DNA of 64,000 nt from Escherichia coli (GCF_017348835.2 NZ_CP071375.1); one strand, 5' to 3'; shown: positions 12,585-64,000, numbered from the stretch's first letter. Numbers and translations are program-made. Notes: a model not told the origin generated them from the letters alone.

Positions 12585-15500
12585 ATGGCGAATTTCTTTA
12601 TTGATCGCCCCATTTTTGCCTGGGTGCTGGCAATCCTGTTGTGTCTGACAGGTACCCTGGCGATTTTTTCATTGCCCGTTGAACAATACCCCGATCTCGC
12701 GCCACCGAATGTGCGAGTGACCGCTAACTATCCCGGCGCATCGGCCCAGACGCTGGAAAACACCGTGACCCAGGTTATCGAGCAAAATATGACCGGCCTC
12801 GATAATCTCATGTATATGTCATCTCAGAGCAGTGGCACCGGTCAGGCATCTGTCACTTTAAGTTTTAAAGCAGGCACCGATCCGGACGAAGCCGTGCAGC
12901 AAGTACAAAACCAGCTGCAATCAGCCATGCGAAAGTTACCGCAGGCGGTGCAAAATCAGGGCGTGACGGTGCGTAAAACCGGCGATACCAATATTCTGAC
13001 CATTGCTTTCGTCTCTACCGATGGTTCGATGGATAAACAGGATATTGCTGATTATGTTGCCAGTAATATTCAGGATCCGTTAAGCCGCGTGAATGGCGTC
13101 GGGGATATCGATGCCTATGGTTCGCAATATTCCATGCGTATCTGGCTGGACCCGGCGAAACTCAACAGTTTCCAGATGACAGCTAAAGATGTCACTGATG
13201 CCATTGAGTCACAGAACGCGCAGATTGCGGTTGGGCAACTTGGGGGTACACCTTCCGTCGATAAGCAGGCGCTCAACGCCACCATTAACGCCCAGTCACT
13301 GCTGCAAACACCAGAACAGTTCCGCGATATCACCTTGCGGGTGAATCAGGACGGCTCAGAAGTAAGGCTGGGCGATGTCGCCACCGTCGAAATGGGGGCG
13401 GAGAAATACGATTATCTTAGCCGCTTCAATGGTAAGCCAGCCTCCGGGTTGGGGGTAAAACTGGCCTCCGGCGCAAACGAAATGGCGACAGCGGAGCTGG
13501 TGCTCAATCGTCTCAACGAGCTGGCGCAGTATTTCCCGCATGGACTGGAATACAAGGTGGCGTATGAAACCACCTCGTTTGTTAAAGCCTCCATTGAAGA
13601 CGTGGTGAAAACGCTGCTGGAAGCTATCGCTCTGGTTTTCCTCGTTATGTATCTGTTCCTGCAAAACTTCCGCGCCACGCTGATACCCACTATCGCCGTG
13701 CCGGTGGTGTTGATGGGAACCTTCTCCGTACTTTACGCCTTCGGTTACAGCGTCAACACCTTAACCATGTTCGCGATGGTGCTGGCGATCGGTCTGCTGG
13801 TGGATGACGCCATCGTGGTGGTGGAAAACGTCGAACGTATTATGAGTGAGGAAGGACTCACTCCTCGCGAAGCCACACGTAAATCGATGGGGCAGATCCA
13901 GGGGGCACTGGTCGGGATTGCGATGGTGCTTTCGGCGGTATTTGTACCAATGGCCTTCTTCGGCGGCACCACCGGTGCCATCTATCGCCAGTTCTCTATT
14001 ACCATTGTTGCGGCGATGGTGCTGTCAGTACTGGTAGCGATGATCCTCACTCCGGCTCTGTGTGCCACGCTACTTAAGCCACTGAAAAAAGGTGAGCATC
14101 ACGGGCAAAAAGGCTTTTTTGCCTGGTTTAACCAGATGTTTAACCGCAACGCCGAACGCTACGAAAAAGGGGTGGCGAAAATTCTCCACCGTAGCCTGCG
14201 CTGGATTGTGATTTATGTCCTGCTGCTTGGCGGCATGGTGTTCCTGTTCCTGCGTTTGCCGACGTCGTTCTTACCGCTGGAAGACCGGGGCATGTTTACT
14301 ACCTCGGTACAATTGCCCAGCGGTTCAACCCAACAACAGACCCTGAAAGTCGTTGAGCAAATCGAGAAATATTACTTCACCCATGAAAAAGACAACATCA
14401 TGTCGGTGTTTGCCACCGTTGGCTCTGGCCCTGGGGGCAACGGGCAAAACGTGGCGCGAATGTTTATCCGCCTGAAAGACTGGAGCGAACGCGACAGTAA
14501 GACCGGCACCTCATTTGCCATTATCGAGCGTGCAACGAAGGCGTTTAACAAGATTAAAGAAGCTCGCGTTATCGCCAGCAGCCCGCCAGCAATTAGCGGT
14601 CTTGGTAGTTCTGCGGGTTTTGATATGGAGTTGCAGGACCACGCTGGAGCAGGTCACGATGCGCTGATGGCAGCACGTAACCAGTTGCTGGCGCTGGCGG
14701 CGGAAAACCCGGAGCTAACCCGTGTGCGCCATAACGGCCTCGATGACAGTCCGCAGTTGCAGATTGATATCGACCAGCGTAAAGCTCAGGCGCTGGGCGT
14801 TGCTATCGACGATATTAACGACACACTGCAAACCGCCTGGGGTTCGAGCTATGTGAATGACTTTATGGATCGCGGTCGCGTGAAGAAAGTCTATGTGCAG
14901 GCAGCTGCGCCGTATCGCATGCTGCCAGATGACATCAATCTCTGGTATGTCCGAAATAAAGATGGCGGCATGGTGCCCTTCTCTGCTTTCGCGACCTCAC
15001 GCTGGGAGACAGGCTCGCCGCGTCTGGAACGCTATAACGGTTATTCTGCGGTTGAGATTGTTGGGGAAGCCGCACCGGGGGTCAGTACCGGTACGGCGAT
15101 GGATATTATGGAATCGTTAGTGAAGCAGTTGCCAAACGGCTTTGGTCTGGAGTGGACGGCGATGTCGTATCAGGAGCGGCTTTCCGGCGCGCAGGCTCCG
15201 GCGCTGTACGCTATTTCCTTGCTGGTGGTATTCCTGTGTCTGGCTGCATTGTATGAAAGCTGGTCGGTACCGTTCTCGGTAATGCTGGTCGTGCCGCTGG
15301 GGGTTATCGGCGCGCTGCTGGCAACCTGGATGCGGGGGCTGGAAAACGACGTTTACTTCCAGGTGGGCCTGTTAACGGTCATTGGTTTATCGGCGAAAAA
15401 CGCCATCCTGATCGTCGAGTTTGCTAACGAGATGAACCAAAAAGGCCACGACCTGTTTGAAGCGACGCTCCACGCCTGCCGTCAGCGTTTACGCCCGATT

Positions 15501-31241: not shown

Positions 31242-31892
31242 ATGACCGGTTCTATGATCGTAAATAATCTGGCGGGACTGATGATGCTGACATCGCTGTT
31301 TGTGATTAGCGTCAAAAGCTATCGCCTGTCATGCGGATTTTACGCCTGCCAGTCGCTGGTGCTGGTGTCTATTTTCGCCACTCTCTCGTGCCTGTTCGCC
31401 GCAGAGCAACTGCTGATCTGGTCTGCCAGCGCCTTTATCACCAAAGTGCTGCTGGTACCGTTAATCATGACTTACGCTGCACGAAATATTCCCCAGAACA
31501 TCCCGGAAAAAGCGTTATTCGGTCCGGCAATGATGGCACTGCTCGCGGCGTTAATTGTCCTGCTTTGCGCATTTGTCGTTCAGCCCGTGAAGCTACCGAT
31601 GGCTACCGGGCTGAAACCGGCGCTGGCGGTAGCGTTAGGTCATTTTCTGCTTGGCCTGCTGTGCATTGTCAGCCAGCGCAATATCCTGCGGCAAATTTTT
31701 GGTTACTGCCTGATGGAAAACGGCTCCCATCTGGTGCTGGCGCTTCTTGCCTGGCGAGCACCGGAACTGGTGGAAATAGGTATCGCTACCGACGCCATCT
31801 TCGCCGTCATTGTGATGGTGTTACTGGCAAGAAAAACATGGCGTACCCACGGCACGCTGGACGTGAACAACTTGACCGCGCTGAAGGGATAA
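31242..31892 (+). CDS. hyfE: Hydrogenase-4 membrane subunit HyfE
   Basis: 216-aa hydrophobic ORF in the operon position. Confidence 0.85.
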
Positions 31893-31896
31893 TGAG

Positions 31897-33477
31897 ATGA
31901 GTTATTCTGTGATGTTCGCTTTACTCCTGCTCACGCCGCTGCTTTTTTCGCTGCTCTGTTTTGCCTGCCGGAAACGGGGGCACTCTGCGACTCGCGCGGT
32001 GACAGTATTACATAGCTTAGGGATCACACTACTGCTGATTCTGGCACTCTGGGTGGTCCAAACCGCCGCTGATGCGGGAGAAATATTCGCTGCGGGACTG
32101 TGGCTTCATATTGATGGTCTGGGCGGTTTGTTCCTCGCCATTCTTGGTGTGATTGGCTTTCTTACCGGTGTTTACTCGATTGGCTACATGCGTCATGAAG
32201 TGGAGCACGGCGAGCTTTCACCCGTTACGCTGTGCGATTACTACGGTTTCTTCCATCTGTTTTTGTTCACCATGCTGCTGGTTGTTACCAGCAATAACCT
32301 GATTGTGATGTGGGCGGCGATCGAAGCCACCACCTTAAGCTCGGCGTTTCTGGTAGGCATTTACGGTCAGCGTTCATCGCTGGAAGCTGCATGGAAGTAC
32401 ATCATTATTTGTACTGTTGGTGTCGCTTTTGGTCTGTTCGGTACCGTGCTGGTATACGCCAACGCCGCCAGCGTTATGCCGCAGGCAGAAATGGCGATAT
32501 TCTGGAGCGAGGTTCTTAAGCAATCGTCCTTGCTTGATCCAACATTAATGCTGTTGGCCTTTGTGTTTGTGCTAATTGGCTTTGGTACCAAAACCGGGCT
32601 ATTTCCCATGCACGCCTGGCTGCCGGATGCTCACAGTGAAGCGCCGAGTCCGGTCAGCGCCCTACTCTCCGCCGTATTGCTGAACTGCGCGCTGTTGGTG
32701 CTGATTCGCTATTACATCATTATTTGCCAGGCCATCGGCAGCGATTTCCCCAACCGGTTGTTGCTCATCTTCGGCATGTTGTCGATTGCCGTGGCGGCAT
32801 TTTTCATTCTGGTACAGCGGGACATTAAGCGTCTGCTGGCGTACTCCAGCGTGGAGAACATGGGACTGGTCGCGGTGGCGCTAGGCATTGGCGGGCCGCT
32901 GGGAATTTTTGCCGCGCTGCTGCACACCTTAAACCACAGTCTAGCAAAAACGCTGCTGTTCTGCGGTTCCGGCAATGTACTGCTCAAGTACGGCACGCGC
33001 GATCTCAACGTCGTCTGTGGGATGCTCAAAATCATGCCATTTACCGCCGTGCTGTTTGGCGGCGGTGCGCTGGCGCTGGCAGGGATGCCGCCCTTCAACA
33101 TTTTTCTTAGCGAATTTATGACCGTTACCGCCGGACTGGCACGTAATCACCTGCTGATTATCGTCCTGCTGTTATTGCTGTTAACGCTGGTGCTGGCGGG
33201 CCTGGTACGGATGGCTGCGCGGGTGTTAATGGCGAAACCGCCGCAGGCCGTTAACCGGGGTGATCTCGGCTGGTTGACCACCTCGCCAATGGTGATTCTG
33301 CTGGTCATGATGCTGGCGATGGGAACGCATATTCCACAACCTGTCATCAGGATCCTGGCGGGCGCTTCCACTATAGTCCTCTCAGGGACGCACGACCTGC
33401 CTGCACAACGTAGTACCTGGCATGATTTTTTGCCTTCAGGCACCGCATCTGTTTCGGAGAAACACAGTGAACGTTAA
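31897..33477 (+). CDS. hyfF: Hydrogenase-4 membrane subunit HyfF (antiporter-like)
   Basis: 526-aa polytopic membrane protein with [19 protein letters not shown] motif. Confidence 0.9.
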
Positions 33478-35191: not shown

Positions 35192-35737
35192 ATGCTGAAG
35201 TTACTGAAAACTATTATGCGCGCCGGAACCGCGACGGTGAAATATCCCTTCGCGCCACTGGAGGTCAGCCCAGGCTTTCGCGGGAAACCGGACCTGATGC
35301 CCAGCCAATGTATTGCCTGCGGTGCCTGCGCCTGTGCTTGTCCGGCAAATGCGCTGACTATCCAGACCGACGACCAGCAAAATTCGCGCACCTGGCAGCT
35401 CTATCTGGGGCGTTGTATTTACTGCGGACGTTGTGAAGAAGTGTGCCCGACCAGAGCCATTCAGCTTACCGATAACTTTGAACTGACCGTCACCAATAAA
35501 GCCGATCTCTATACCCGCGCGACGTTCCATCTACAACGTTGCAACCGTTGCGAACGCCCGTTTGCCCCGCAAAAAACCGTCGCACTGGCTGCTGAATTGT
35601 TGGCACAGCAACAAAATGCGCCACAAAACCGCGAAATGTTGCGGGCGCAAGCGAGCGTCTGCCCGGAGTGCAAACAACGCGCGACGCTGATCAACGACGA
35701 TACAGATGTACCGCTGGTGGCTAAGGAGCAGCTATGA
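35192..35737 (+). CDS. hyfH: Hydrogenase-4 ferredoxin subunit HyfH
   Basis: 181-aa ORF with two CxxCxxCxxxCP motifs. Confidence 0.9.
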
Positions 35738-51721: not shown

Positions 51722-53965
51722 TCAGGCACTTTCGCGAATGGGTTCGATTTCATTCAGCGTATCAATTAACGGTTGCGGCTTACCAATAAGATAACCCTGC
51801 ATATAATCGATCCCCAAAGAGAGCACTGCCTCGCGGATCTCTTCGTTTTCAACGTACTCTGCCACTACCAGCATTTTCTTCATTCGCGCCAGGTGGCAAA
51901 TCGATGCCACTATCTGATAATCCAGACTATTTGACACAATATTGCGGATAAAACTGCCGTCAATTTTAAGCAGATCGGCATTCACATTTTTAAGCCGCGC
52001 ATAGCTGGCGTAGCCGGTGCCGAAATCATCAATCGCAATCTGGCAGCCTAATTCCTGAAGATGCTGCAAGGTGATTTGCGCCTGCTTAACATTGGTCAGA
52101 GCATTACTTTCGGTGACTTCAAAAATAAGTTGCCACGCTTCAATCTGATATTTAGCCAGCAACTGACTGACTTCAACAGGAAAACGAGCCTGACATACCG
52201 AGGTTGGAGACAGATTAATAGCAAAACGGTGAGCGGGCATCTTCGCTCTGTTTTCAGCCATAAATTGCAGCGTATGCTCAATGACCCACATGTCGATACT
52301 CGACGATAAACCAAATTCGTGCGCGACCGGCAAGAAGCTATCGGGGCTGATCAGTTCATCATTCTCACCTTTCATGCGCAGAAGAATTTCATGGTAAACA
52401 TCACCACGCATACCGGTAATTGGCTGGGCCATCAGGAAAAAATGGTTGTGTTCCAGCGCCTGCTGTAGTCGATTCATCATCGCGACTTTATCTTTCAATT
52501 CGCGTTGCAAATACATTGCCCCGCGACGCTGCATATTTTCCGGGGCGTTGGTCACGATGGAAAGTTCGGCGACCGTATTTAGCTCTCCCAGCAGCAGGTA
52601 GATATAATTCACTGGCGAGCGCACATAGCAGTAACTGACGCCAATCTGCGGTTGCATCGGCATGCCATCCCAAAAGAAACGAAATTGCTTGAGATGGCTA
52701 TCCAGTGCGGTAATGCGCTCCTGGTGCGATTCTGTATTCAGTCGCAGCGCGAGATCGTTACCCGAAAGCTGATAAACATCTTCACCCGGTTCCAGCAATG
52801 GTGACAGCCAGTGAGAAAGTTTTTGCTTGTATTGAATCCGCAGCATGATGCCATAGTTTTTAACCAGCATTTCCATGCCAGGGATGCGTAAATAACAAAG
52901 CGCAGACCAGGGGGCATCACGCAACGCGCGATTCAGGGCGCGAACATTTGGCAGATGAACCACCGGGTCCACATACGCAAGCCGCTGAATGCGTCTGACT
53001 ACCGTTCTCTGACGGGTTGCCAGTACAGCCATATAATTGACAATAAAAGAGAATACCAGATAACTGGAGGAGGTTATGGTCAGCTGCGTGGTATAGCCGG
53101 GATAAATGGGAATGTAATTTTGATAGCTGTGGATGCTGATCATCAACACGACCGCCCAGAGCAGTGAAATCAGCTTATAACCATAGCGCATCGCTCCCCA
53201 CATCATCAGGGGCAGCAATAATGACAAGGTATAATTGGTGCTAAAAATTGTGCTTTTTTCATTTAACGGCATGCATAACAGCAACAGTAAAGCACCTAAT
53301 GCCAGTAGCCAGAGTGCGAACTCTTTTTTGGTGACTTTGACATCAACCTGCTGTTTTAATTGCGAATAATAACTACGTAAATAAAACGGATTTCGAACTA
53401 CCCGAATGATGAAGTAGCACAGCGGGACACCAATCAGATTGCCCACCAGTAAGGCCTGATAATTGATTAAAGTCCCGAGGTTAAAAGGCATGACACCGAC
53501 CAGATTTTCTCTGCTCGCCAGTAATCCTACAAATGCAGCAAACTGGAAAAGTATCAGAAACAGCGTTGCAGGAAACACAATCTGCCAGAATATACGCTGG
53601 GAAATTAAACGGGTATCACCATGTGAAACGTTGTTACGCCGGGGAGTAAAGACCCTGTAACCGCCCCAACAGAGAATGATAATGATGATAAAATTAGCCG
53701 TTAATGAGAGCGTTTCGTAAAAACCCAGCTCTGCATATTTGCGGACAAAAATCCCTAAGGCGATCCCTGGCAATGCCGCCCAGCTGAAAAACATCATCAT
53801 GCTGATCATCAGTGCCAAAGGCAGATAAAAGAGAAAAACCTCACCGGAAGAAATATGCGCGAAAGTATTAATGTGGGCGAAAATAGGCAAGATTAAAGAA
53901 GGCAGGAACAGCGGAAGCCCCCACCATTTATCACGTATTTTTATATAAGTTGCATTCAGTTTCAT
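51722..53965 (-). CDS. pdeF: Membrane-anchored cyclic-di-GMP phosphodiesterase (degenerate GGDEF plus EAL domain) YfgF/PdeF
   Basis: 747-aa ORF with an N-terminal multi-TM region and a C-terminal EAL domain (EVTES ... DDFGTGYAS). Confidence 0.9.
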   Translation of the reverse strand: MKLNATYIKIRDKWWGLPLFLPSLILPIFAHINTFAHISSGEVFLFYLPLALMISMMMFFSWAALPGIALGIFVRKYAELGFYETLSLTANFIIIIILCWGGYRVFTPRRNNVSHGDTRLISQRIFWQIVFPATLFLILFQFAAFVGLLASRENLVGVMPFNLGTLINYQALLVGNLIGVPLCYFIIRVVRNPFYLRSYYSQLKQQVDVKVTKKEFALWLLALGALLLLLCMPLNEKSTIFSTNYTLSLLLPLMMWGAMRYGYKLISLLWAVVLMISIHSYQNYIPIYPGYTTQLTITSSSYLVFSFIVNYMAVLATRQRTVVRRIQRLAYVDPVVHLPNVRALNRALRDAPWSALCYLRIPGMEMLVKNYGIMLRIQYKQKLSHWLSPLLEPGEDVYQLSGNDLALRLNTESHQERITALDSHLKQFRFFWDGMPMQPQIGVSYCYVRSPVNYIYLLLGELNTVAELSIVTNAPENMQRRGAMYLQRELKDKVAMMNRLQQALEHNHFFLMAQPITGMRGDVYHEILLRMKGENDELISPDSFLPVAHEFGLSSSIDMWVIEHTLQFMAENRAKMPAHRFAINLSPTSVCQARFPVEVSQLLAKYQIEAWQLIFEVTESNALTNVKQAQITLQHLQELGCQIAIDDFGTGYASYARLKNVNADLLKIDGSFIRNIVSNSLDYQIVASICHLARMKKMLVVAEYVENEEIREAVLSLGIDYMQGYLIGKPQPLIDTLNEIEPIRESA

Positions 53966-54316: not shown

Positions 54317-54508
54317 GTGAGTCAGGCAACCAGTATGCGAAAACGACACCGATTTAACAGTCGCATGACCCGTATCGTACTGCTCATCAGCTTTATCTTC
54401 TTCTTTGGCCGTTTTATCTACTCGTCCGTCGGTGCCTGGCAGCACCATCAGAGCAAAAAAGAAGCTCAGCAATCCACACTCTCCGTCGAATCACCGGTAC
54501 AACGTTAG
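54317..54508 (+). CDS. yfgG: Small protein YfgG
   Basis: 63-aa ORF with one hydrophobic segment, divergent from yfgF as in K-12; last backbone gene before the IS element. Confidence 0.7.
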   Translation: MSQATSMRKRHRFNSRMTRIVLLISFIFFFGRFIYSSVGAWQHHQSKKEAQQSTLSVESPVQR

Positions 54509-54601
54509 CGGTTACCTTCTCCACTTTCACAGAACATAACGGCACTTTGAACCGCCCCGGAAATCCTGGAGACTAAACTCCCTGAGAAAGAGGTAAACAG
54601 G

Positions 54602-54928
54602 ATGACTAAAAATACTCGTTTTTCCCCCGAAGTCCGTCAGCGGGCGATTCGTATGGTTCTGGAAAGTCAGGATGAATATGACTCACAGTGGGCGGCAATT
54701 TGTTCCATTGCCCCAAAGATTGGCTGTACGCCGGAGACTCTGCGTGTCTGGGTTCGCCAGCATGAGCGGGATACCGGGAGTGGTGATGGTGGACTCACCA
54801 CCGCTGAACGTCAGCGTCTGAAAGAGCTGGAACGTGAAAATCGTGAACTGCGCCGCAGTAACGATATCCTTCGCCAGGCTTCCGCTTATTTTGCGAAGGC
54901 GGAGTTCGACCGCCTCTGGAAAAAATAA
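54602..54928 (+). CDS. IS3-family transposase OrfA (HTH DNA-binding part)
   Basis: 108-aa [33 protein letters not shown]... with a leucine-zipper-like C-terminus; A-rich slippery run (ggaaaaaataatg) at its 3' end. Confidence 0.85.
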
Positions 54929-55815
54929 TGCCACTGCTGGATAAGCTGCGTGAGCAGTACGGGGTCGGACCGGTATGCAGCGAACTGCATATTGCCCCGT
55001 CAACGTATTACCATTGTCAGCAACAGCGACATCATCCGGATAAACGCAGTGCCCGTGCGCAGCACGATGACTGGCTGAAGAAAGAGATACAGCGCGTATA
55101 CGATGAAAATCACCAGGTATACGGTGTGCGTAAAGTCTGGCGTCAGTTGTTACGGGAAGGTATCAGAGTGGCCAGATGCACTGTGGCACGTCTCATGGCA
55201 GTTATGGGACTTGCCGGTGTTCTCCGGGGTAAAAAGGTCCGCACTACCGTCAGCCGGAAAGCCGTTGCCGCATGCGACCGCGTAAACCGTCAGTTCGTGG
55301 CAGAACGTCCAGACCAGTTGTGGGTGGCTGATTTTACCTGGGTAAGCACATGGCAGGGCTTCGTTTATGTGGCGTTCATCATTGATGTGTTCGCCGGATA
55401 CATCGTGGGATGGCAGGTCTCATCATCCATGGAAACAACATTCGTGCTGGATGCACTGGAGCAGGCGTTGTGGGCCCGTCGGCCGTCCGGCACAATCCAT
55501 CACAGTGATAAAGGTTCTCAGTATGTATCGCTGGCCTACACGCAGCGGCTTAAGGAAGCCGGATTACTGGCATCAACAGGGAGTACTGGCGACTCGTATG
55601 ACAACGCGATGGCTGAGAGCATCAATGGTCTTTACAAAGCGGAGGTAATACACCGTAAGAGCTGGAAAAACCGGACAGAAGTGGAACTGGCCACACTAAC
55701 GTGGGTGGACTGGTATAACAATCGACGATTGCTGGAAAGGCTGGGCCATATTCCTCCGGCAGAAGCAGAAAAAGCTTATTATGCTTCCATCGGAAATAAT
55801 GATCTGGCAGCCTGA
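54928..55815 (+). CDS. IS3-family transposase OrfB (DDE integrase catalytic domain)
   Basis: 295-aa ORF in the -1 frame relative to OrfA; rve/DDE core recognisable (WVADFTWVST ... DKGSQYVS ... DNAMAES). Confidence 0.85.
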   Translation: MPLLDKLREQYGVGPVCSELHIAPSTYYHCQQQRHHPDKRSARAQHDDWLKKEIQRVYDENHQVYGVRKVWRQLLREGIRVARCTVARLMAVMGLAGVLRGKKVRTTVSRKAVAACDRVNRQFVAERPDQLWVADFTWVSTWQGFVYVAFIIDVFAGYIVGWQVSSSMETTFVLDALEQALWARRPSGTIHHSDKGSQYVSLAYTQRLKEAGLLASTGSTGDSYDNAMAESINGLYKAEVIHRKSWKNRTEVELATLTWVDWYNNRRLLERLGHIPPAEAEKAYYASIGNNDLAA

Positions 55816-56045
55816 GTTCACAGATAAAACACTCTCCAGGAAACCCGGGGCGGTTCAAACTCGTACAGTGGCGTACCACTGGGGTCCATTCCTTCAAGTC
55901 TCAGGGAAGCCTCTGCTTTGCGGAAGCCCTCAATGCGTAACCGTGTATAGGGAGTCCTAGACATGTTTTTCCTTTGAGTTGCAGGAGTGAGGTTCGCTCA
56001 GTGAAAGCGTCAGCTCACGCAACCTCGTTAACTGACGCGCGTGAT

Positions 56046-57446
56046 TCAAGATTTATTATTACCCGATAAGCTATCACCGGCAAAATCATCATGTTCGCGG
56101 TTATCCCGACGAGTAGCTGTTTGTTTACTTATCTGAGTCGCCAACTCCTCTCCAATAGTTTGTTGGGCACGAGAAGAACTGCTACTTCGCTTCATTCTCT
56201 GGTACTCAGCAGCTCCGTTAGCCATGCTGCTTCCCATATGGCTTGCCATGCGGCCAGCACGCGAGAATGAAGCAAACCCCTGACTTCCTCCACTGGCGCT
56301 ACCTGAACTGCTCCCTGCAGACGAACCACTGTAACCGCCTGAGGTTTGGCCTCCAGAAGTATCTACAGAACCGGTATCTTCCCCGCCGCCAAATCCTCCA
56401 CCGGAACCGCCTCCGCTGCCTGAACCAGATTCTTCGTCCATGGCAGCTTGCGCAGACTCGAATGCTGCCTTTAATGCTGAAGCTCCGCCGCTGACTTGAG
56501 CTGATGCCCCCATTGCCATTGCTCCAGCACCGCTGATGGCAGTAGCGGCTGCGCCGGTAATCATACCCGCCCCAAATCCACCAATCCCTTGTAAAGAAGC
56601 CCCTCCTACAACACCTGATAACAACAGTGGTAGCTTATTAGTTAATACTAACAGGATAATTGACGCCAGAAGCAAAACTATAAGACTATTAAGATCAGGA
56701 ACATCATCTTTAATAAGAGAAAAATATTGATCTATAAATGATTGTCCAATCCCAATAATTAATGTCATCGTGAATAATTGAATGCCAATCGATAAAACAG
56801 TTCGTAAGTAATTAATTGCTATATCAGAGGTCCATTTCGAACCACCAAACCCAAGCAATATAACTCCTGCATAACATAACACCCATGCAGAAACCAACAT
56901 GATTAGCATATTTATCGCTATAAGGGACATCACTACCAAAACGATTATCGCGACTGTTATCATAATGGTGGATATCATTGGCGACCAAATTGATGCGGCT
57001 GAACTGATCTTGGTTAATATCGCAAACGCCATATCAACTATGCTTGAGGGAGAAATACCAATACTTATTTCTAAAGCGTTTGCTGCAAGTTGTCTCATTG
57101 AATTAATTATGGATTGCGATATGGATGGACCGTTGATTAAAAGATAATAAAAAAAACCAATGACGGCAAAAAAGCGAACTATTTCAGCAAGTACCCCTGT
57201 CAACCCTTCCCCTTGCATCGCCATCATACCAAATGTCCAAACCATACTTATTAATACCAGCCCCCAGAAGAGCCAATTTGCATAGTCAGCAATTACTGCT
57301 GTCCATGTACTGGCTACTTGTTGAAACTTATCTAATAAAGTATCAAGTAGCCCGCTACTATCTAATTGACCAGCATAGGCATTAATAGAAAAGAAAAGTA
57401 TGATACCTAAAAAGGTGAGCTTACTTACTATTTTCATGATTACCAT
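56046..57446 (-). CDS. trbL: TrbL/VirB6-family conjugative transfer membrane protein
   Basis: 466-aa ORF with signal peptide, several TM helices and a long Gly/Ser-rich hydrophilic C-terminal tail, the TrbL/VirB6 architecture; synteny with trbJ and a small lipoprotein gene upstream. Confidence 0.65.
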   Translation of the reverse strand: MVIMKIVSKLTFLGIILFFSINAYAGQLDSSGLLDTLLDKFQQVASTWTAVIADYANWLFWGLVLISMVWTFGMMAMQGEGLTGVLAEIVRFFAVIGFFYYLLINGPSISQSIINSMRQLAANALEISIGISPSSIVDMAFAILTKISSAASIWSPMISTIMITVAIIVLVVMSLIAINMLIMLVSAWVLCYAGVILLGFGGSKWTSDIAINYLRTVLSIGIQLFTMTLIIGIGQSFIDQYFSLIKDDVPDLNSLIVLLLASIILLVLTNKLPLLLSGVVGGASLQGIGGFGAGMITGAAATAISGAGAMAMGASAQVSGGASALKAAFESAQAAMDEESGSGSGGGSGGGFGGGEDTGSVDTSGGQTSGGYSGSSAGSSSGSASGGSQGFASFSRAGRMASHMGSSMANGAAEYQRMKRSSSSSRAQQTIGEELATQISKQTATRRDNREHDDFAGDSLSGNNKS

Positions 57447-57631
57447 TCTCGTTTAGGGCTTGGTTTATTATTACTCCGTAGAGCACATTTATCGTATTTA
57501 TGTTCATCAAATTTATTATCTGGCATCGATAAACAATCTTTATCATTTTTATCGCAAGAACATATGGCCAATAAACTGATCAGAATAAATACAATCAAAA
57601 AATTATCTTTCATTCTGCGTTTCCTCACCAA
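57440..57631 (-). CDS. Small lipoprotein in the TrbK (IncP entry-exclusion) position
   Basis: 63-aa ORF with a hydrophobic leader and Cys-containing lipobox-like motif (LLAICSCDK); overlaps the trbJ stop and trbL start, as trbJ-trbK-trbL does in IncP plasmids. Confidence 0.45.
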   Translation of the reverse strand: MVRKRRMKDNFLIVFILISLLAICSCDKNDKDCLSMPDNKFDEHKYDKCALRSNNKPSPKREW

Positions 57632-58419
57632 ATTCGCTTCGGGCTTGGTGTATTCTCTCCAGCTAACGCTTTTTCATCAGCGGCTATCTGTTGTGATTCT
57701 TTATCTGCCTGAGCCTGTGCCAGTGTTGCTGCAGCGTTTTGTTGGGCTACCAGAAGTGAGCGGATTTGCAGTAACTGATTTGTCTGTGCACTGGCAAGCT
57801 GGTTTGCCGCCTGAATAGCTTCCATTTGCCCTTGTGCGCCGCTTGCCTGAGTTTGTAATTCGGCAAGATTATCAGCATCGCTCTGCAGGGTGTTCTGCTG
57901 CTCGTCAATTACCTTAAATACTGCGTCATTGGCCTTTTTACGCGCCCCTGAGCTATTCTGTTCAGCTTCACGCAGTGCACTAATTTCAGACGCGGTACAT
58001 TCAACATTGCTGTTAAAGCAAGACGATGTCCTGTAGTAGTTAACATCCTGATAGCGTTTCAGGTACGCATCGAGACTCCCGGCCTGATTCTTGTAGTAAT
58101 TAAGGGTATCCTGCACCTGCAACAATTTATTAATTGTTGAATTTGCCTGGTCCCAGATATAGGCCGCAGGAGCTACGGTGTTCTGCAGCATGTTTTCATA
58201 CTGCTGCAGCTGCGTCTGGTACTGCTGGATTTGTTTAGTCACAGCCTGAACGTTGTTAACTGCGCTGATTGTGGTCTGAACCACATTAGTGCCATCAATA
58301 ACGGGAATTCCGGCCTTCACCGGTAATGCCATGACGGACGCCACGAAAGGAACTATTAAAGCTTTTTTAGCGGCTAAAATCCCTCTTTGTGATGAAACCA
58401 CTCGGAACTTTAAATTCAT
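57625..58419 (-). CDS. trbJ: TrbJ/VirB5-family conjugative transfer protein
   Basis: 264-aa ORF with signal peptide and Gln/Ala-rich coiled-coil stretches typical of TrbJ/VirB5 minor pilus/adhesin proteins. Confidence 0.6.
   Translation of the reverse strand: MNLKFRVVSSQRGILAAKKALIVPFVASVMALPVKAGIPVIDGTNVVQTTISAVNNVQAVTKQIQQYQTQLQQYENMLQNTVAPAAYIWDQANSTINKLLQVQDTLNYYKNQAGSLDAYLKRYQDVNYYRTSSCFNSNVECTASEISALREAEQNSSGARKKANDAVFKVIDEQQNTLQSDADNLAELQTQASGAQGQMEAIQAANQLASAQTNQLLQIRSLLVAQQNAAATLAQAQADKESQQIAADEKALAGENTPSPKRIW
58365..58379. promoter_or_regulatory. KorB-operator-like palindrome TTTTAGCGGCTAAAA (copy 1, inside the 5' end of trbJ)
   Basis: Perfect inverted repeat containing TTTAGCGGCTAAA, identical to the IncP-1 KorB operator consensus TTTAGC(G/C)GCTAAA. 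Confidence 0.6.
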
Positions 58420-58499
58420 TTGCTCACCTCTTTTTCAACAGATTAGTAATATTTAACACTCTGTCTGTTAACAGACGCAGGTATATAGGAAACCACACA

Positions 58500-58865
58500 T
58501 TATTTATCCAAGATTTTATCCATAATGTTCCTTAGTTCTTGCCGAGTTGATTCTATTTTCGCAAGCAAGGTTCTTATCAGTGTGGGTGAAAAATCAACTG
58601 TTCGAGGATCATTTGCGAGCCATAATTTAAGTAATCCGCCAAGTCTTCCAAGATCAGCATTTACTCGGCTAAGTTCATTAACCTGTTTTATATCTACGAT
58701 AGAATCAACCTGATAACCCATTGCAACTCTACGAACAAAACAGGCAACACTTAATCCAGATGCTTCTGCATTTTCTTGGATGAGAATTTTTTCTTCGGGT
58801 AAACAATAAACTTTTATTGGCGTACTATTTTTTCTAGTCTGAGTAACTTTCATATAGCTCTCCAT
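58500..58865 (-). CDS. MobC-family relaxosome accessory protein (ribbon-helix-helix)
   Basis: 121-aa ORF; VYCLPEEKILIQENAEASGLSVACFVRRVAMG ... LSRVNADLGRLGGLLKLW fits the MobC-family pattern; lies directly beside a candidate oriT region. Confidence 0.55.
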   Translation of the reverse strand: MESYMKVTQTRKNSTPIKVYCLPEEKILIQENAEASGLSVACFVRRVAMGYQVDSIVDIKQVNELSRVNADLGRLGGLLKLWLANDPRTVDFSPTLIRTLLAKIESTRQELRNIMDKILDK

Positions 58866-58939
58866 ACAGGCGGTAGCCTGGCAGCCTCGCAGAGCAGGAC
58901 GCCCTTGAGCCGCGATGCGGCGAATAGGGAGTGGTAAAG

Positions 58940-58995
58940 TTGGAACACCGTAGCGGTGGGCCCACTTTACATGTCCTGCCCTGCAGTTGCCGTTG
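58940..58995. promoter_or_regulatory. Candidate origin of transfer (oriT-like region)
   Basis: 10-bp perfect palindrome GTGGGCCCAC (58956-58965) immediately followed by CTTTACATGTCCTGCCCTGCAG, which resembles my recollection of the IncP nic region (core TCCTGCCC); adjacent to the MobC-like gene. Confidence 0.35.
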
Positions 58996-59252
58996 TATAT
59001 CTGTGCACGACAATGTGTATTTCAGTGTACAGGATGTGTTTTCTTAGCGTATTAATATAGGATTACTGGAGTAAATTTCTGCAGCAAATGTGTTTTTTGC
59101 AAGGAAACTATATTTCTCCCTTTTGAAAATGACCTTTAGTAGTTATAAATGGACGTCCACCAACTGTATTTATGTTTCGATATATTGTAAGAAGTCTTTC
59201 ATTTTCCGATGCACTTTTTTACTTACCTTGTCAGAGCATGTGCATTGCAGAT

Positions 59253-59265
59253 TTTAGCGGCTAAA
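59253..59265. promoter_or_regulatory. KorB-operator-like palindrome (copy 2)
   Basis: aTTTTAGCGGCTAAAATc; exact match to the IncP-1 KorB operator core, in the 675-bp intergenic region. Confidence 0.6.
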
Positions 59266-59501
59266 ATCTGCCTCCCTATGCCTAAAGCTAGGGGCGTACC
59301 TCATATGTCATAAAATCTACCTCAAGTGTCAATATACCAAACGTGTAAGTAATCTCTTCTTCTGGCGTACAACCATCGGTCTTTGGCCGATTCTAGATTT
59401 GAAAGCGCCTGCTCAGGCAGGTGATTTCAAAGCCTGAATATACTGGTTGATCCTGAATAACCTGCAAAGGAGTTAAAAAATCAGGCCTCTGTAGCACACT
59501 G

Positions 59502-59562
59502 GCGGGCCGTTACAGCACATCACCGGGCCGTAACGACACGTTACCGGGCCGTTGTAGCTCGT
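59502..59562. repeat. Three direct iteron-like repeats with 21-bp periodicity
   Basis: CGGGCCGT recurs at 59503, 59524 and 59545 with similar flanks (..TACAGCACAT / ..AACGACACGT / ..TGTAGCTCG); the third overlaps the stop codon of the putative initiator gene. Confidence 0.5.
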
Positions 59563-60314
59563 TTTATCCTAGAATTTTGTATCTCAATGCCAATCGCTAG
59601 AAATTGTTTGCTATCTTCTTTTAATCTCCGCCGATAGTTACGTAATGTCATATTATTGGTACCTTCACCACTGACAGCTAAAATTAATGTATCAATATGC
59701 CAGCCGCCTTTAGGATCGTGCTTATGTGTTAATATATGACGTGCAACTGCTTGGCTAATACCATGCTGGAGACGAGCAATAGGACCTGGATCATGATGAA
59801 AATGCAAATCTCGCTTCAACAACATTACCAATGCAACACCCAAGCGTACTCTCCATAGGTTACGTTCACCACCAGTTAGAGGATTACGCCTAGTCATTGG
59901 TGAGGGTACGACATGGTCAATTAAACCGCCTAGAATGCAATAACCGTTTTTTTCTAAATCTGGCGTTACTATTTCAACAGTTGCCACACGTAGATCAACG
60001 AGTAGTTTTTTAATTCGATCATAACTGTATTGTGCATCGGATAGAGTTCGGCGTACTTTCGCTGGATCTACTAATAACTCGATTCCTCCATCAGAAATTT
60101 CTCGACGTTTCTCGGCCACATAGAGCATTGTTTCCACAATATCCGCATGACGTTGTCCTAGTCTTCCGGTAACTCGACAACGACCAAAACTAGTCTCCAT
60201 CCACTGCCCCTTCAGCGCCAAGGGACGTTGACTTGGTTGGTACAGAATGACTCTAGCCTGCAGAGCTGTGCTAGTAGGTGTAACTTTATTACCAGTTATC
60301 ATTTTCTGCACCAC
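59541..60314 (-). CDS. Hypothetical protein, possible replication initiator (RepC-like by position)
   Basis: 257-aa basic protein directly downstream of the RepA-like helicase gene and ending in the iteron-like repeats; assignment rests on gene order, not on recognised motifs. Confidence 0.35.
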   Translation of the reverse strand: MVQKMITGNKVTPTSTALQARVILYQPSQRPLALKGQWMETSFGRCRVTGRLGQRHADIVETMLYVAEKRREISDGGIELLVDPAKVRRTLSDAQYSYDRIKKLLVDLRVATVEIVTPDLEKNGYCILGGLIDHVVPSPMTRRNPLTGGERNLWRVRLGVALVMLLKRDLHFHHDPGPIARLQHGISQAVARHILTHKHDPKGGWHIDTLILAVSGEGTNNMTLRNYRRRLKEDSKQFLAIGIEIQNSRIKRATTAR

Positions 60315-60330
60315 TCAATGAAGACATACA

Positions 60331-61146
60331 TTATTTTGCTATTTGTTTTTTATTCTTCGATTTGAGTTGCGTTATCCTTAATACTCCTCCCTCATGTCTC
60401 TGTAACCAACGTTCTGGCGTACGTTCTCCATAATTTGCTTTATTTATTCCAAATCTAACAAATTGACCTCGAACATCATCAGAAATATCATACGTCTTCG
60501 CTTCTAAGGCGGTCATGCCCGCCAGATAAGATTGCCACCGTATATTATCAACCAGGACGCTACTACCCCTGCTTGCCTGCTGTATATCACCAACTCCCAT
60601 CGTGGCAGAGCCTTTGTTTGAATGGTGTAGAAATATAATCGAACACCCTGTATCAGCAGCAATACCTTCTAGCTTTCCAATGACTTTGGACATTGCTCCG
60701 CTATTATTTTCATCTTCCTGGTGGAAACGGCGAAGAGTATCCAAAATTATTAACCGTCTACTTTTTGAAATCTCATTAATCAAGTTGCTCCAACCTGGCG
60801 AGAAAATATTTGGACACTTCCCTACCAAAGGTTCGACAAGTAGCTTATCAGCAACAATCTGCTGCTGACGTGCTGTTAGATATTTTCCCAAAGCATATAG
60901 ACGATGGTGAATGATGGTTGCAGAGTCCTCCACAGGTAAATATGCCACTAACCCCGTTGGATATTCACCAAAGTTTAAAAGATCTACACCACAAGTAATC
61001 TGCACAGCCAGTTGCAATGCCAGCATTGACTTTCCAACGCCTCCCGGAGAAACAATCGCTCCGATAGTACCAATAGCCAAATTAGGCAAGACGTAATCAA
61101 TTGGTTGCGGCTTAGCTTCAAATGCTTCCATTATGTTCAATGACAT
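60331..61146 (-). CDS. RecA-fold AAA_25 ATPase, RSF1010 RepA-like replicative helicase
   Basis: 271-aa ORF with Walker A (SPGGVGKSMLALQLA) and Walker B-like (RLIILDTL) motifs; size and motif layout as in IncQ RepA. Confidence 0.6.
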   Translation of the reverse strand: MSLNIMEAFEAKPQPIDYVLPNLAIGTIGAIVSPGGVGKSMLALQLAVQITCGVDLLNFGEYPTGLVAYLPVEDSATIIHHRLYALGKYLTARQQQIVADKLLVEPLVGKCPNIFSPGWSNLINEISKSRRLIILDTLRRFHQEDENNSGAMSKVIGKLEGIAADTGCSIIFLHHSNKGSATMGVGDIQQASRGSSVLVDNIRWQSYLAGMTALEAKTYDISDDVRGQFVRFGINKANYGERTPERWLQRHEGGVLRITQLKSKNKKQIAK

Positions 61147-61151
61147 TGCTG

Positions 61152-61403
61152 TTACCTACCTAAAACAATACCGGGTCTGGCTGCTTTAAACATTGCTGAT
61201 TTACGATCCGCAATCCACTGTTCCACTTCGGATAACTGCCATGCAACATTTCGGCTCGTAAGTGCTATACGGCGAGGAAACTCGCCTCGCTGTTCAAGGT
61301 TATAAATAGTGCGGGCTGACAATGGGATCATTTCCAGAAGTGTTTTTCTGTTAATGAGCGTGCTATGTGCCTTTGTTTGCATCTGCCTTCCTCCTGTTTC
61401 CAA
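61152..61403 (-). CDS. alpA: AlpA-family prophage/island transcriptional regulator (excisionase-like)
   Basis: 83-aa ORF with the AlpA HTH signature (LSARTIYNLEQRGEFPRRIALTSRNVAWQLSEVEQWI). Confidence 0.7.
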   Translation of the reverse strand: METGGRQMQTKAHSTLINRKTLLEMIPLSARTIYNLEQRGEFPRRIALTSRNVAWQLSEVEQWIADRKSAMFKAARPGIVLGR

Positions 61404-61459
61404 TCAGGCCTATACAATGCCAAGCATTACCACTTGCTAAAACCTATTCATTGGCTAAA

Positions 61460-62431
61460 ATGGTTGACATGAAAATTACTATCTGGGAAGGCTGTGACCT
61501 CACAGTTGCAGCTGCAATTAAATTATTTGTAGAGCGTAGTTCTCCGTACTCCATATTTTCACGGAGGTATCCAATACTGCGTCTCATACAGGAAGTTATT
61601 GATCCAGCAGTAGCTGATTATGTAAATTCCCTGCCACCAAGTCATAAAGACTACATTTCTGGAGTAAATCTAGGATTTAGTGAAGTACTTAAAAAATTGG
61701 GTTTAAACGTCGTAGTACAGGCACAAAGACTTCTTTTGCGTAATTTCGTTCTGACTTTAGATCAACAAACTTCTCTTGATAAATGCTTTACCGCTACGAT
61801 TGAGTCTCTTATTGAATTAGTCAGTGAATGCGCATCCAAGCGGCCGAAGAAATCCTCTCCTGCAAAAGGAGTAACTATAAATTCACAGCGTAAGCTCGGT
61901 TATTGCGAGTTCTGCGGTAATCTAACCGAATTTTCCAAGTTGATCAGTGAGATATCAGAATTTGTTGCTAACGATAATGAGTTCCCCGTTCATGAAAAAC
62001 AGGTCCTTAGTCATCGATATTGTTCTGACCATAGGCCCAAACTCACCAATGGTCTATGGAATCCCAAATACAGACAAGGAAAGCGGTCTCTCGAACAGTT
62101 CAATAAAGAATTAATAAGGCTTAGACGGCAATGCGCTAAACCTCATAAAGCTAACGCAAACACAGGGGATATATTGATTGATACATATTTTCATGAGTGG
62201 ATGCAGGGTCAAACTTTAACCCCAGCAGATCTAGATAAACTTAGGAATATCGCCAGACGAATGGTTGACTCCAAATTCACTGATACTAAGAAAAAAATAA
62301 TCATATTAAAACACCAAGGTTTTAACCAGTTTGAAACCGCACAGGTTTTAGAAAAAAATCACTACACAACTATGACAAAGCAGGCTGTGTCCAAGGCCTT
62401 AGCGTCTGTGAGGAAAGAATTTTATATTTAA
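61460..62431 (+). CDS. Hypothetical protein with Cys/His cluster and C-terminal helix-turn-helix
   Basis: ORF track starts at 61367, overlapping alpA; a more plausible start is the ATG at 61460 (MVDMKITIW). Contains CEFCGN ... HRYCSDH and a C-terminal HTH-like segment; no family recognised. Confidence 0.45.
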   Translation: MVDMKITIWEGCDLTVAAAIKLFVERSSPYSIFSRRYPILRLIQEVIDPAVADYVNSLPPSHKDYISGVNLGFSEVLKKLGLNVVVQAQRLLLRNFVLTLDQQTSLDKCFTATIESLIELVSECASKRPKKSSPAKGVTINSQRKLGYCEFCGNLTEFSKLISEISEFVANDNEFPVHEKQVLSHRYCSDHRPKLTNGLWNPKYRQGKRSLEQFNKELIRLRRQCAKPHKANANTGDILIDTYFHEWMQGQTLTPADLDKLRNIARRMVDSKFTDTKKKIIILKHQGFNQFETAQVLEKNHYTTMTKQAVSKALASVRKEFYI

Positions 62432-62856
62432 AATAGTATATCCACGAGCTATTATGGTGGCAGTTTAAGTCTTAATACCATCCACTTTATTGAATTATAA
62501 CCAGCCACTTACGAAGGTTTTTCGCGATTACCCTGCTTCAAATTGATGATTTTGAAAATACAGTATTATAGTTTATTGTTTGTAGCGCAGCTGTAAGCGT
62601 TATGCAAAATGGATCACAGTGATACGACCTCACCAGTAAATCACTGAAGCCGATCTGTAATGACATAGAACGAATTGGTTTTATGGTTATGCAATGGCTC
62701 ATCCCCTTACTTGTCCCTGACCATAAAAAGCATTCGCTTTCCTGAAAGCAAGTCTAAGCCAAGGGGCGTTTACAGTTGTCTTATCTTGACTCATTAGGTA
62801 CTGGCTTAATGATTAGAATCATGTCGGTGGCATTTAGGTCCAAATATGCCCAAAAT

Positions 62857-62869
62857 TTTAGCAGCTAAA
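62857..62869. promoter_or_regulatory. KorB-operator-like palindrome (copy 3, central A variant)
   Basis: aTTTTAGCAGCTAAAATt; same arms with a central A instead of G/C. Confidence 0.5.
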
Positions 62870-62900
62870 ATTCGTCTTCTCATGTAGGGTCAAGAAGCTT

Positions 62901-63098
62901 ATGACTAAACCTATTGATTATGTGAATTACCTTGTGAGTAATACTCGTAGGATGGAATCTTCCAAAACTCTGACAATTCACTCTGAATGCATGGTAACAA
63001 AGAACAGTTTAAACCATGGTCTGTTCAGCGTTAAATTTCTCAAGATAGACTTCCATTTCGCGAGTCCACCTAGGGGTAGGTACCGAGGTGATCATTAG
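62901..63098 (+). CDS. Small hypothetical ORF (65 aa), doubtful
   Basis: Begins about 30 bp after KorB-like copy 3 but overlaps the 3' end of the convergent 209-aa ORF; weak ribosome-binding site. Confidence 0.2.
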   Translation: MTKPIDYVNYLVSNTRRMESSKTLTIHSECMVTKNSLNHGLFSVKFLKIDFHFASPPRGRYRGDH

Positions 63099-63638
63099 CC
63101 AAGGAAACCACCATACAAGCATGAAGAGTAACATAAGCGGTGCGATCATTTCGGCCGAAGAATGAGAAACTATATACATAATGAATAATATTAGTAGAAC
63201 TGTGTTTACAATCTGACCTACCAGAAAAAGACGCCAGCGAAAACAATGCCATTTCCTGTTGAACACAATCCGTCCATCCCGTTCTTCGAGCCAGTTACGC
63301 CACGGCTTGAGATAACCAGCCCGCAACCCATAACGATCACACATTATTACAGCCAAATCCTGCAGCCGATAATTATACAAGCCTGTGAGCCGATAAAGGC
63401 TGCGCTGACGAAGCTCACGCTTTGCCAGACGGACCGCATTTTTATTCAAATATGGCTGTGTCAGCATTTGCTCTAGCCGGCGCTTCCTAAGATTGAGTAG
63501 TCCACGAAATACACTTCCAGATTCAGCATTAATTACTCTGTGACGAACTACACCGAGTGCAATATAGATACACAGCAATAGCCAGCCGGTCTTAGGGTAT
63601 TGATTCATCCATTGTATAATTACAGACAACTCAGGCAC
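63009..63638 (-). CDS. Hypothetical membrane protein (209 aa)
   Basis: Two to three predicted TM helices separated by an Arg-rich loop; KorB-like copy 4 lies about 55 bp upstream of its start; no family recognised. Confidence 0.5.
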   Translation of the reverse strand: MPELSVIIQWMNQYPKTGWLLLCIYIALGVVRHRVINAESGSVFRGLLNLRKRRLEQMLTQPYLNKNAVRLAKRELRQRSLYRLTGLYNYRLQDLAVIMCDRYGLRAGYLKPWRNWLEERDGRIVFNRKWHCFRWRLFLVGQIVNTVLLILFIMYIVSHSSAEMIAPLMLLFMLVWWFPWLMITSVPTPRWTREMEVYLEKFNAEQTMV

Positions 63639-63692
63639 TTTTATTTTTCCTTTTTATGCAATCCAGATAAAACCAGTAAAGATTCAGTAAAT

Positions 63693-63705
63693 TTTAGCGG
63701 CTAAA
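63693..63705. promoter_or_regulatory. KorB-operator-like palindrome (copy 4)
   Basis: aTTTTAGCGGCTAAAATt, between the 209-aa membrane protein gene and the integrase gene. Confidence 0.6.
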
Positions 63706-63761
63706 ATTGCTCTCCTGGCGTAGAAAAAAGAAGCACACCAACTTAACTTACTGATTATTAA

Positions 63762-64000
63762 CTACTTACTAGTCCATTCATCAATCATATTCGCCCAATC
63801 TTGTAGCATCTCAGCCCTCTGCTCACGATATTCTGCCTTGTTATAAACAGCTCGTACCCCTTTTTGTTCATGGGCAAGGCTCTTCTCAATCCAGTCAGTA
63901 TTGTACCCGGCCTCATGTAGCAAGGTGCTGGCTGTACGCCGTAAGTCATGGGGACCAAACTTAGGCAACAACTCCCCTTCTTTCTGAGCCAGGCGATACG
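63762..64000 (-). CDS. int: Tyrosine recombinase (P4-type integrase), C-terminal part; the gene continues past the window end
   Basis: Frame open to the window edge; C-terminal sequence ...GPHDLRRTASTLLHEAGYNTDWIEKSLAHEQKGVRAVYNKAEYREQRAEML contains the catalytic H-x-x-R and Tyr region of phage-type integrases. Confidence 0.75.
   Translation of the reverse strand, partial: YRLAQKEGELLPKFGPHDLRRTASTLLHEAGYNTDWIEKSLAHEQKGVRAVYNKAEYREQRAEMLQDWANMIDEWTSK

Follow-up and report, generated by a model that had tools for sequence, protein, structure and literature searches.

A copy of IS629 stands at 54548-55857 of the window, that is, of the whole 64,000-nt stretch of Escherichia coli DNA analysed here (GCF_017348835.2, NZ_CP071375.1), with backbone genes on one side and island DNA on the other, and the bases that abut its two ends do not match. 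The question raised by this locus is whether the element was simply inserted there or whether it borders a rearrangement. The initial annotation had favoured the second reading, namely an IS-mediated deletion or recombination that removed one island end together with the neighbouring backbone genes.

Structure of the IS629 copy

The element is intact and comprises the following features:

54548..55857, + strand: IS629 (IS3 family), intact, 1,310 bp, recognised by its ends, ORFs and OrfB identity
54548..54572, + strand: IRL, the left terminal inverted repeat, which abuts the deletion and matches IRR at 22/25 positions
54602..54928, + strand: orfA, 108 aa, an ORF whose exact protein occurs on 483 contigs
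54883..54999, + strand: ALIL frameshift-stimulating pseudoknot in the orfA/orfB overlap (Rfam RF01497, 120.3 bits, E 2.9e-32)
54928..55815, + strand: orfB, 295 aa, with a DDE transposase domain; OrfAB is made by programmed -1 frameshift
55833..55857, - strand: IRR, the right terminal inverted repeat, which keeps the ancestral junction, identical in strain F2_81

The termini read TGAACCGCC...GGCGGTTCA, with TG...CA ends and imperfect inverted repeats. The 64-kb window contains the 13-nt terminus TGAACCGCCCCGG at two places only, the two IS ends, where it stands in inverted orientation (0.06 occurrences expected), and no further IS629 copy was found by this terminus elsewhere within the window. 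The two reading frames overlap at 54928, and the PGAP note for the corresponding PE164 transposase reads 'programmed frameshift'. OrfB matched the NCBIfam profile transpos_IS3 with 311.8 bits (cutoff 160; E 6.9e-93) and is letter for letter the protein that NCBI names 'IS629 transposase OrfB [E. coli O157:H7 str. Sakai]'. The assignment to IS629 was made from this identity, the profile match and the ends.

At the nucleotide level the element showed no mismatch to a copy on a viral contig (L065). From the copies of PE164 and F2_81 it differs by one base, A instead of C at IS position 1151 (C in the PE164 RefSeq record), where IS629 copies vary (16 A, 22 C). This variant and the commonest viral-contig copies, whose left repeat is GGGAATCC instead of GGAAATCC, are about 4% apart (53-64 nt). 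Compared with IS629/IS1203 of E. coli and Shigella, the window copy has the same length of 1,310 bp, the same TG...CA termini and imperfect inverted repeats of about 25 bp, and likewise orfA and orfB, the -1 frameshift and the ALIL pseudoknot, with no structural difference. The element is an ordinary IS629 and structurally nothing new.

Source strain and comparators

The junction region was matched over its full length by E. coli PE164 (pig, China; NZ_CP114128.1), the sole match among 5,426 complete genomes. Six of the 30,501 bases compared differ between the window and the PE164 RefSeq record. The window would be either another assembly version of PE164 or a very close relative or sister isolate; the two records may be one assembly in two versions, in which case the junction rests on a single sequencing effort. 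The six differences lie at 35577-35578, 46003, 52606, 52908 and 55698, the last being IS position 1151. Two of them fall in pdeF, annotated by PGAP with an 'internal stop' in PE164 and present as an intact 747-aa ORF in the window. The gene for the hydrogenase-4 regulator hyfR (window 36928-38939) is annotated as frameshifted in PE164 and is a possible pseudogene.

The key comparator was F2_81 (pig, Australia; NZ_CP043542.1), which is 99.96% identical on either side of the junction. It has this IS629 at the corresponding place in the island, and its right junction (GGCGGTTCA/AACTCGTACAG) is identical base for base. Its order is pdeF::IS629-yfgG-yfgH-yfgI-DprA-like-RecQ-like-DUF2326-ABC-3C proteins-higA'-IS629-trbL-trbJ-traJ-...-int-guaA, the distal att repeat of the island lying between yfgI and the defence cargo. 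In PE164 and in the window, yfgG leads directly to IS629.

Backbone and island sequences at the junction

The description of the locus as backbone on one side and island on the other proved correct, with ppk, ppx, pdeF and yfgG to the left and trbL, trbJ, traJ, repA, luxR and int to the right, where the G+C content is lower (0.38-0.47). The features that flank the element are:

54317..54508, + strand: yfgG, the last backbone gene kept left of the IS, a 63-aa ORF (YfgG family protein in PE164)
54509..54547, no strand: remaining 39 bp of the yfgG-yfgH spacer (comparison with F2_81, locus L002, 3150-3200)
55858..55860, no strand: AAC, right copy of the degenerate 3-nt duplication from the original higA insertion (empty-site comparison)
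55858..55964, - strand: 5' remnant of a higA-family antitoxin gene, 35 codons, disrupted by the IS (translation MSRTPYTRLRIEGFRKAEASLRLEGMDPSGTPLYE...; aligns to intact higA)
55858..64000, - strand: remnant of a guaA-integrated mobilizable island, PIME/GIsul2-like (PGAP annotation of PE164; NCBIfam)
56046-57437, - strand: trbL (NCBIfam TrbL, 2.4e-80)
57625-58419, - strand: trbJ (NCBIfam TrbJ, 7.5e-114)
58500-58853, - strand: traJ (NCBIfam TraJ, 3.6e-47)
59541-60314, - strand: hypothetical protein (PGAP)
60331-61146, - strand: repA helicase (PGAP name; no NCBIfam match)
61152-61382, - strand: HTH protein, 76 aa (PGAP name; no NCBIfam match)
61460-62431, + strand: luxR (PGAP)
63009-63638, - strand: hypothetical protein (PGAP)
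from 63762, - strand: int, inside which the window ends (NCBIfam integrase domain, 1.7e-43)

The intact higA used in the alignment measures 435 bp and comes from strains EC416 and WP2. In PE164 the island continues for about 1.25 kb beyond the window end up to guaA, and the tyrosine integrase gene adjoins the guaA 3' end (int at L001 30263-31453, guaA at 31758-33335).

Target-site duplications of IS629

The flanks read ...AACGGCACTT / IS / AACTCGTACAG... (...ACATAACGGCACTT / IS / AACTCGTACAGTGG... over a longer stretch). The initial annotation had noted that no matching duplication of 3-4 bp was evident and had called for the exact ends to be mapped; with the ends fixed at 54548 and 55857 there is still none, either over 3 bp (CTT vs AAC) or over 4 bp (ACTT vs AACT). 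This placement of the ends was validated by a second copy in F2_81, inserted in pdeF, which has the same ends and a perfect TTT duplication (L002 1-791 / L005 859-2168) and whose unoccupied target is seen in the window (52143-52153), and by 21 independent copies on IMG/VR viral contigs, again with the same ends and with perfect 3-bp duplications.

The duplication of 3 bp (rarely 4 bp) that is a feature of IS629 was present in 22 of the 39 copies surveyed, and 17 of the 39 independent copies of this survey, on viral contigs, were without a perfect one. A similar proportion was reported by Rump et al. (2011), who found a perfect duplication at only 21 of 47 sites. As about 45% of IS629 copies are without a perfect duplication, its absence alone is weak evidence. 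The flank mismatch in the window is real, yet it is not unusual by itself for IS629.

Loss of 8,813 bp to the left of the element

Left of the IS, F2_81 keeps 8,813 bp (L002 3189-12001) that are absent from the window. After yfgG, F2_81 reads CACAGAACATAACGGCACTT/CGCTGTCGGATG... and the window CACAGAACATAACGGCACTT/TGAACCGCC, so that the breakpoint falls between 54547 and 54548, where the intact sequence runs on; its position is ambiguous by at most 1 nt, as a T precedes the IS in both genomes. Of the missing DNA, 1,436 bp belong to the backbone and hold yfgH and yfgI; the other 7,377 bp are island sequence and include the distal att repeat, the defence cargo and two-thirds of higA at its 3' end. 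In this cargo, PADLOC recognised PsyrA (1.6e-136), PsyrT (6.6e-278) and a PDC-M68-like protein adjoining the ABC-3C proteins named by PGAP.

When the 8.8-kb segment was used as a query, 5,424 of the 5,426 complete E. coli genomes matched at least part of it, including yfgH-yfgI, and only 6 records, PE164 not among them, covered at least 80%. PE164 is one of at most two complete genomes without a yfgH-yfgI match (F2_81 L002 3460-4533). An inversion or translocation was rejected, the segment being found nowhere else in the PE164 chromosome.

It is almost certain from these alignments that 8,813 bp, from the left end of the IS to the yfgG-yfgH spacer, were lost and that IS629 was kept as the border. 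The comparison with a related, island-bearing strain was decisive, since F2_81 retains the whole segment next to the same IS, and it supports the removal, proposed in the initial annotation, of one island end (the distal att) and of neighbouring backbone genes (yfgH and yfgI). The same annotation had named an IS-free version of the junction as contrary evidence, and none was seen: no genome among the 5,426 joins yfgG to higA or trbL without an IS. The left junction was not found independently in any E. coli genome besides PE164, nor in metagenomes. Because the left flank was replaced by the deletion, there can be no match between the CTT now on the left and the AAC that was already present on the right.

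Both endpoints (window 54534-54547; L002 11993-12001) lie a few nucleotides 3' of the hexamer TAACGG, as seen in ACATAACGGCACTT/ and CCTTAACGGAT/IS. The hexamer loosely resembles the IS terminus TGAACCG and could reflect chance or a target preference; no such motif was noticed by eye around the 22 copies whose duplication is perfect. We also considered that the IS might mark a mosaic boundary between island variants, which was discarded, as in every variant the sequence passes from variable to conserved within higA, with no sharp step at the IS.

The ancestral insertion into higA

Empty higA sites read TTAA(C/T)GGACTCGTAC, where F2_81 reads TTAACGGAT-IS-AACTCGTAC. A query made of the joined F2_81 flanks was covered to at least 80% in 112 genomes. 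It measures 464 nt, whereas the listed empty sites are 461 nt long. The difference of 3 nt shows the original event as a simple insertion of IS629 into higA, a state represented by one comparator only, F2_81.

The two flanks of this insertion in F2_81 are GAT (L002 11999-12001) and AAC (13312-13314) on a GAC target, with the IS-abutting base changed on each side (C replaced by T on the left and G by A on the right, both being C to T on the strand with the IS 5' end). The GAT copy was lost with the deletion and the window retains AAC only. This imperfect 3-nt duplication is the sole unexplained detail of the locus. Since the ancestral simple insertion was itself without a perfect duplication, a missing duplication is a poor stand-alone indicator, and a call of rearrangement for IS629 has to be decided by comparison with a relative.

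Four further copies without a duplication were examined, a sample too small to generalise on imperfect duplications. In an O111 prophage (L071, 3430-3445 and 4750-4760; empty site L127, 295-305) the copy is a simple insertion with a one-mismatch duplication. In the orientation of the locus it reads ...GCGATG-IS-ATCTGGCAC against GCGATGTGGCAC at the empty site, and in that of the IS it reads GAT...CAT on a CAT target, with 3 nt added and the other flank bases unchanged (497/497). The copy in L041 (6802-8111) joins two unrelated loci, a phage capsid region and an integrase region, which no searched genome has side by side, and no contiguous empty site was found for the copy in L084. The fourth (L063, 5060-6369) borders a deletion of about 157 bp, judged against O111:H8 TW05614, where this sequence separates the two flanks.

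From these comparisons it is conceivable, if rather unlikely, that IS629 integration itself may sometimes produce imperfect 3-nt duplications, possible causes being error-prone gap filling and nucleotides carried over from the circle junction. If errors do arise during insertion, some duplication-less IS629 copies would be simple insertions, and the inference of rearrangements from duplications would over-call.

Route of the deletion

A route in two transposition events and one recombination event would lead to the observed junction. IS629 first underwent the simple insertion into higA, an antitoxin gene at the cargo edge of the 18-kb guaA island, and this state survives in F2_81. Copy-out-paste-in would then have put a second, directly oriented IS629 into the yfgG-yfgH spacer, and homologous recombination between the identical 1.3-kb copies would have removed the interval together with one copy. 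We consider the explanation as a whole, with the recombination route that we infer, moderately probable.

The joint coincides exactly with the IS tip, and its two sides share no more than 1 nt. A microhomology-mediated deletion was rejected, as the nearby TAACGG and CGGAT (5-6 nt), found near both endpoints, were not used as the joint. These two features suggest that the joint was defined by transposition rather than by slippage. An IS-containing query found about 26-32 matching places per chromosome in the clone formed by PE164 and F2_81, in which IS629 is highly active. The pdeF and higA copies of F2_81 are identical in sequence, directly oriented and 11.2 kb apart, the pdeF copy standing to the left; they are the kind of two-copy intermediate that the route requires, but at another position. 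The recombination route is favoured because canonical copy-out-paste-in restores the donor and should not by itself delete the flanks, and because the clone is rich in IS629, F2_81 has a direct copy at this distance and iee was not detected on the chromosomes.

The search for iee (Sakai ECs_1305), whose presence is expected for IEE-dependent IS629 deletions, did not detect the gene on the PE164 or F2_81 chromosomes at megablast sensitivity (identities from about 85% up); the chimeric query, island plus iee, gave one place per chromosome, the island, and the search covered the chromosomes only. The intermediate predicted by the recombination route, with the IS right end joined to CTTCGCTGTCGG, was not found among the 5,426 genomes at 80% or more of a chimeric query, and it gave no metagenome match when a 3-5-nt duplication was allowed for. 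A hybrid-IS signature in SNPs was uninformative, as the copies are identical or differ only at the polymorphic position 1151. A second IS copy that could have recombined, for which the initial annotation had suggested looking, was not found at the left breakpoint in the genomes and metagenomes searched; of the 'deletion or recombination' it proposed, the deletion is established, and recombination between two copies is inferred.

Alternatively, the interval may have been lost in one step, through a transposase-dependent adjacent deletion in which an abortive attempt at transposition aberrantly linked the resident IS629, by its left end, to the yfgG-yfgH spacer, possibly by 'sloppy' strand transfer, by a reactive IRR-IRL junction or by IEE-assisted strand switching or end joining. 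The position of the joint at the tip fits this mechanism, as do the deletion bordered by the L063 copy and the failure to find a two-copy intermediate. Moreover, IS629 excision in the presence of IEE comes with adjacent deletions of a few nt to more than 40 kb, according to Kusumoto 2011 as relayed in PMC9943667 and bioRxiv 10.1101/2023.06.07.543989. However, the loss of a flank would need an activity beyond canonical transposition, iee was not detected on either chromosome, and joints of the IEE type are expected to show at least 4 nt of microhomology in vitro, more than the bases shared here. A single step is possible but doubtful.

A deletion independent of the IS, by replication slippage or end joining with a right endpoint that happened to coincide with the IS left end, is very unlikely. 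The single T common to both endpoints would allow a joint made by 1 nt of microhomology, one base short of the IS, but a chance landing within 1 nt of the tip is improbable over several kilobases, and the longer homologies close by were left unused. Slightly less likely still is an assembly artefact, in which two real IS629 copies flanking the 8.8-kb segment were collapsed by the assembler. The six differences between the window and PE164, one of them inside the IS, hint at two polishing versions of one assembly, and the junction occurs in no other record or metagenome; however, the chromosome is closed at 5.03 Mb, a collapse would mean that 8.8 kb of unique sequence, near-universal genes among it, went missing from the whole assembly, and assemblers normally place such sequence somewhere. 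Finally, although IS629 insertions can have imperfect duplications, a simple insertion into a pre-existing backbone/island junction, its duplication lost or never made, is hardly credible, given that no genome shows such a junction free of the IS and that the right junction is the one of F2_81, whose left flank is the rest of higA.

The guaA island remnant

Irrespective of the route, the deletion bears on the status of the island. In F2_81 an 18-bp direct repeat, AAATCATTCCCACTC(G/A)AT, delimits the island, one copy standing just past yfgI and the other overlapping the guaA stop codon, 18,083 bp apart. The repeat contains the reverse complement of GAGTGGGA, which has been shown experimentally to be the att core of the guaA island GIsul2 (PMC9376610; bioRxiv 10.64898/2026.01.12.698999). 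Two copies of the repeat were counted in F2_81 and in WP2, one in PE164 (guaA-proximal) and none in the window, which ends inside int; the pair of flanking att sites typical of PIME/GIsul2 is thus lacking in the window and PE164.

Elements of this type are defined by the core genes alpA, repA, trbJ and trbL, besides traJ and luxR, by the want of a complete type IV secretion system and by mobilization through a helper conjugative plasmid. TrbL, TrbJ and TraJ passed the NCBIfam cutoffs, and repA and the HTH protein are so called by PGAP name only, the latter being at most a candidate AlpA. Having lost one att site and its accessory module, the island in the window is best called a PIME remnant. 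With trbL...int and a single att site it should no longer excise, and it probably falls outside the functional definition of mobilizable. An annotation of the window should accordingly record a truncated guaA island, probably immobile, rather than an intact one. A single IS event had three effects, as it probably disabled the island by loss of an att site, stripped the PsyrTA and ABC-3C-like defence and removed core genes.

The palindrome TTTTAGC(G/A)GCTAAAAT occurs in four copies in the remnant (58365-58380, 59252-59267, 62856-62871 and 63692-63707; 0.02 expected), one at the trbJ start and the other three intergenic, and could be a candidate operator for an island regulator. In two other strains this cargo region has been interrupted as well, by an mcr-1.1 insertion in 2018-11-1BCC and by another IS3-family insertion in WS3294A; the accessory DNA beside trbL seems to receive insertions repeatedly.

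Comparison with known systems

The island shares with the PIME/GIsul2 family an int at guaA, a small HTH protein, luxR, repA, traJ, trbJ and trbL, together with the att core, and in those relatives variable defence cargo adjoins trbL (bioRxiv 10.64898/2026.01.12.698999; PMC9376610). Unlike them, the window element is without the distal att and the accessory region, and its higA is split.

As for the deletion itself, the IS629/IEE deletions of EHEC O157 resemble the present case in the IS629 retained at the border, in the many IS629 copies of the host and in a size range that includes 8,813 bp. They differ from it in that here no iee was found on the chromosome, the host is a porcine E. coli clone and the truncated element is a guaA island rather than a prophage. 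Ooka is said to have described IS629-associated adjacent deletions in EHEC O157 in 2009.

In the long-term evolution experiment, deletions at the rbs operon reportedly arose by a new IS150 insertion followed by recombination between direct copies. Both elements belong to the IS3 family, and in both cases one copy is left with the flanks of two insertions and no matching duplication. The intermediate was not observed here, and the likeness concerns the end product only. The locus thus presents a known element with a known outcome, a classical IS-bounded adjacent deletion that changes nothing in IS biology.
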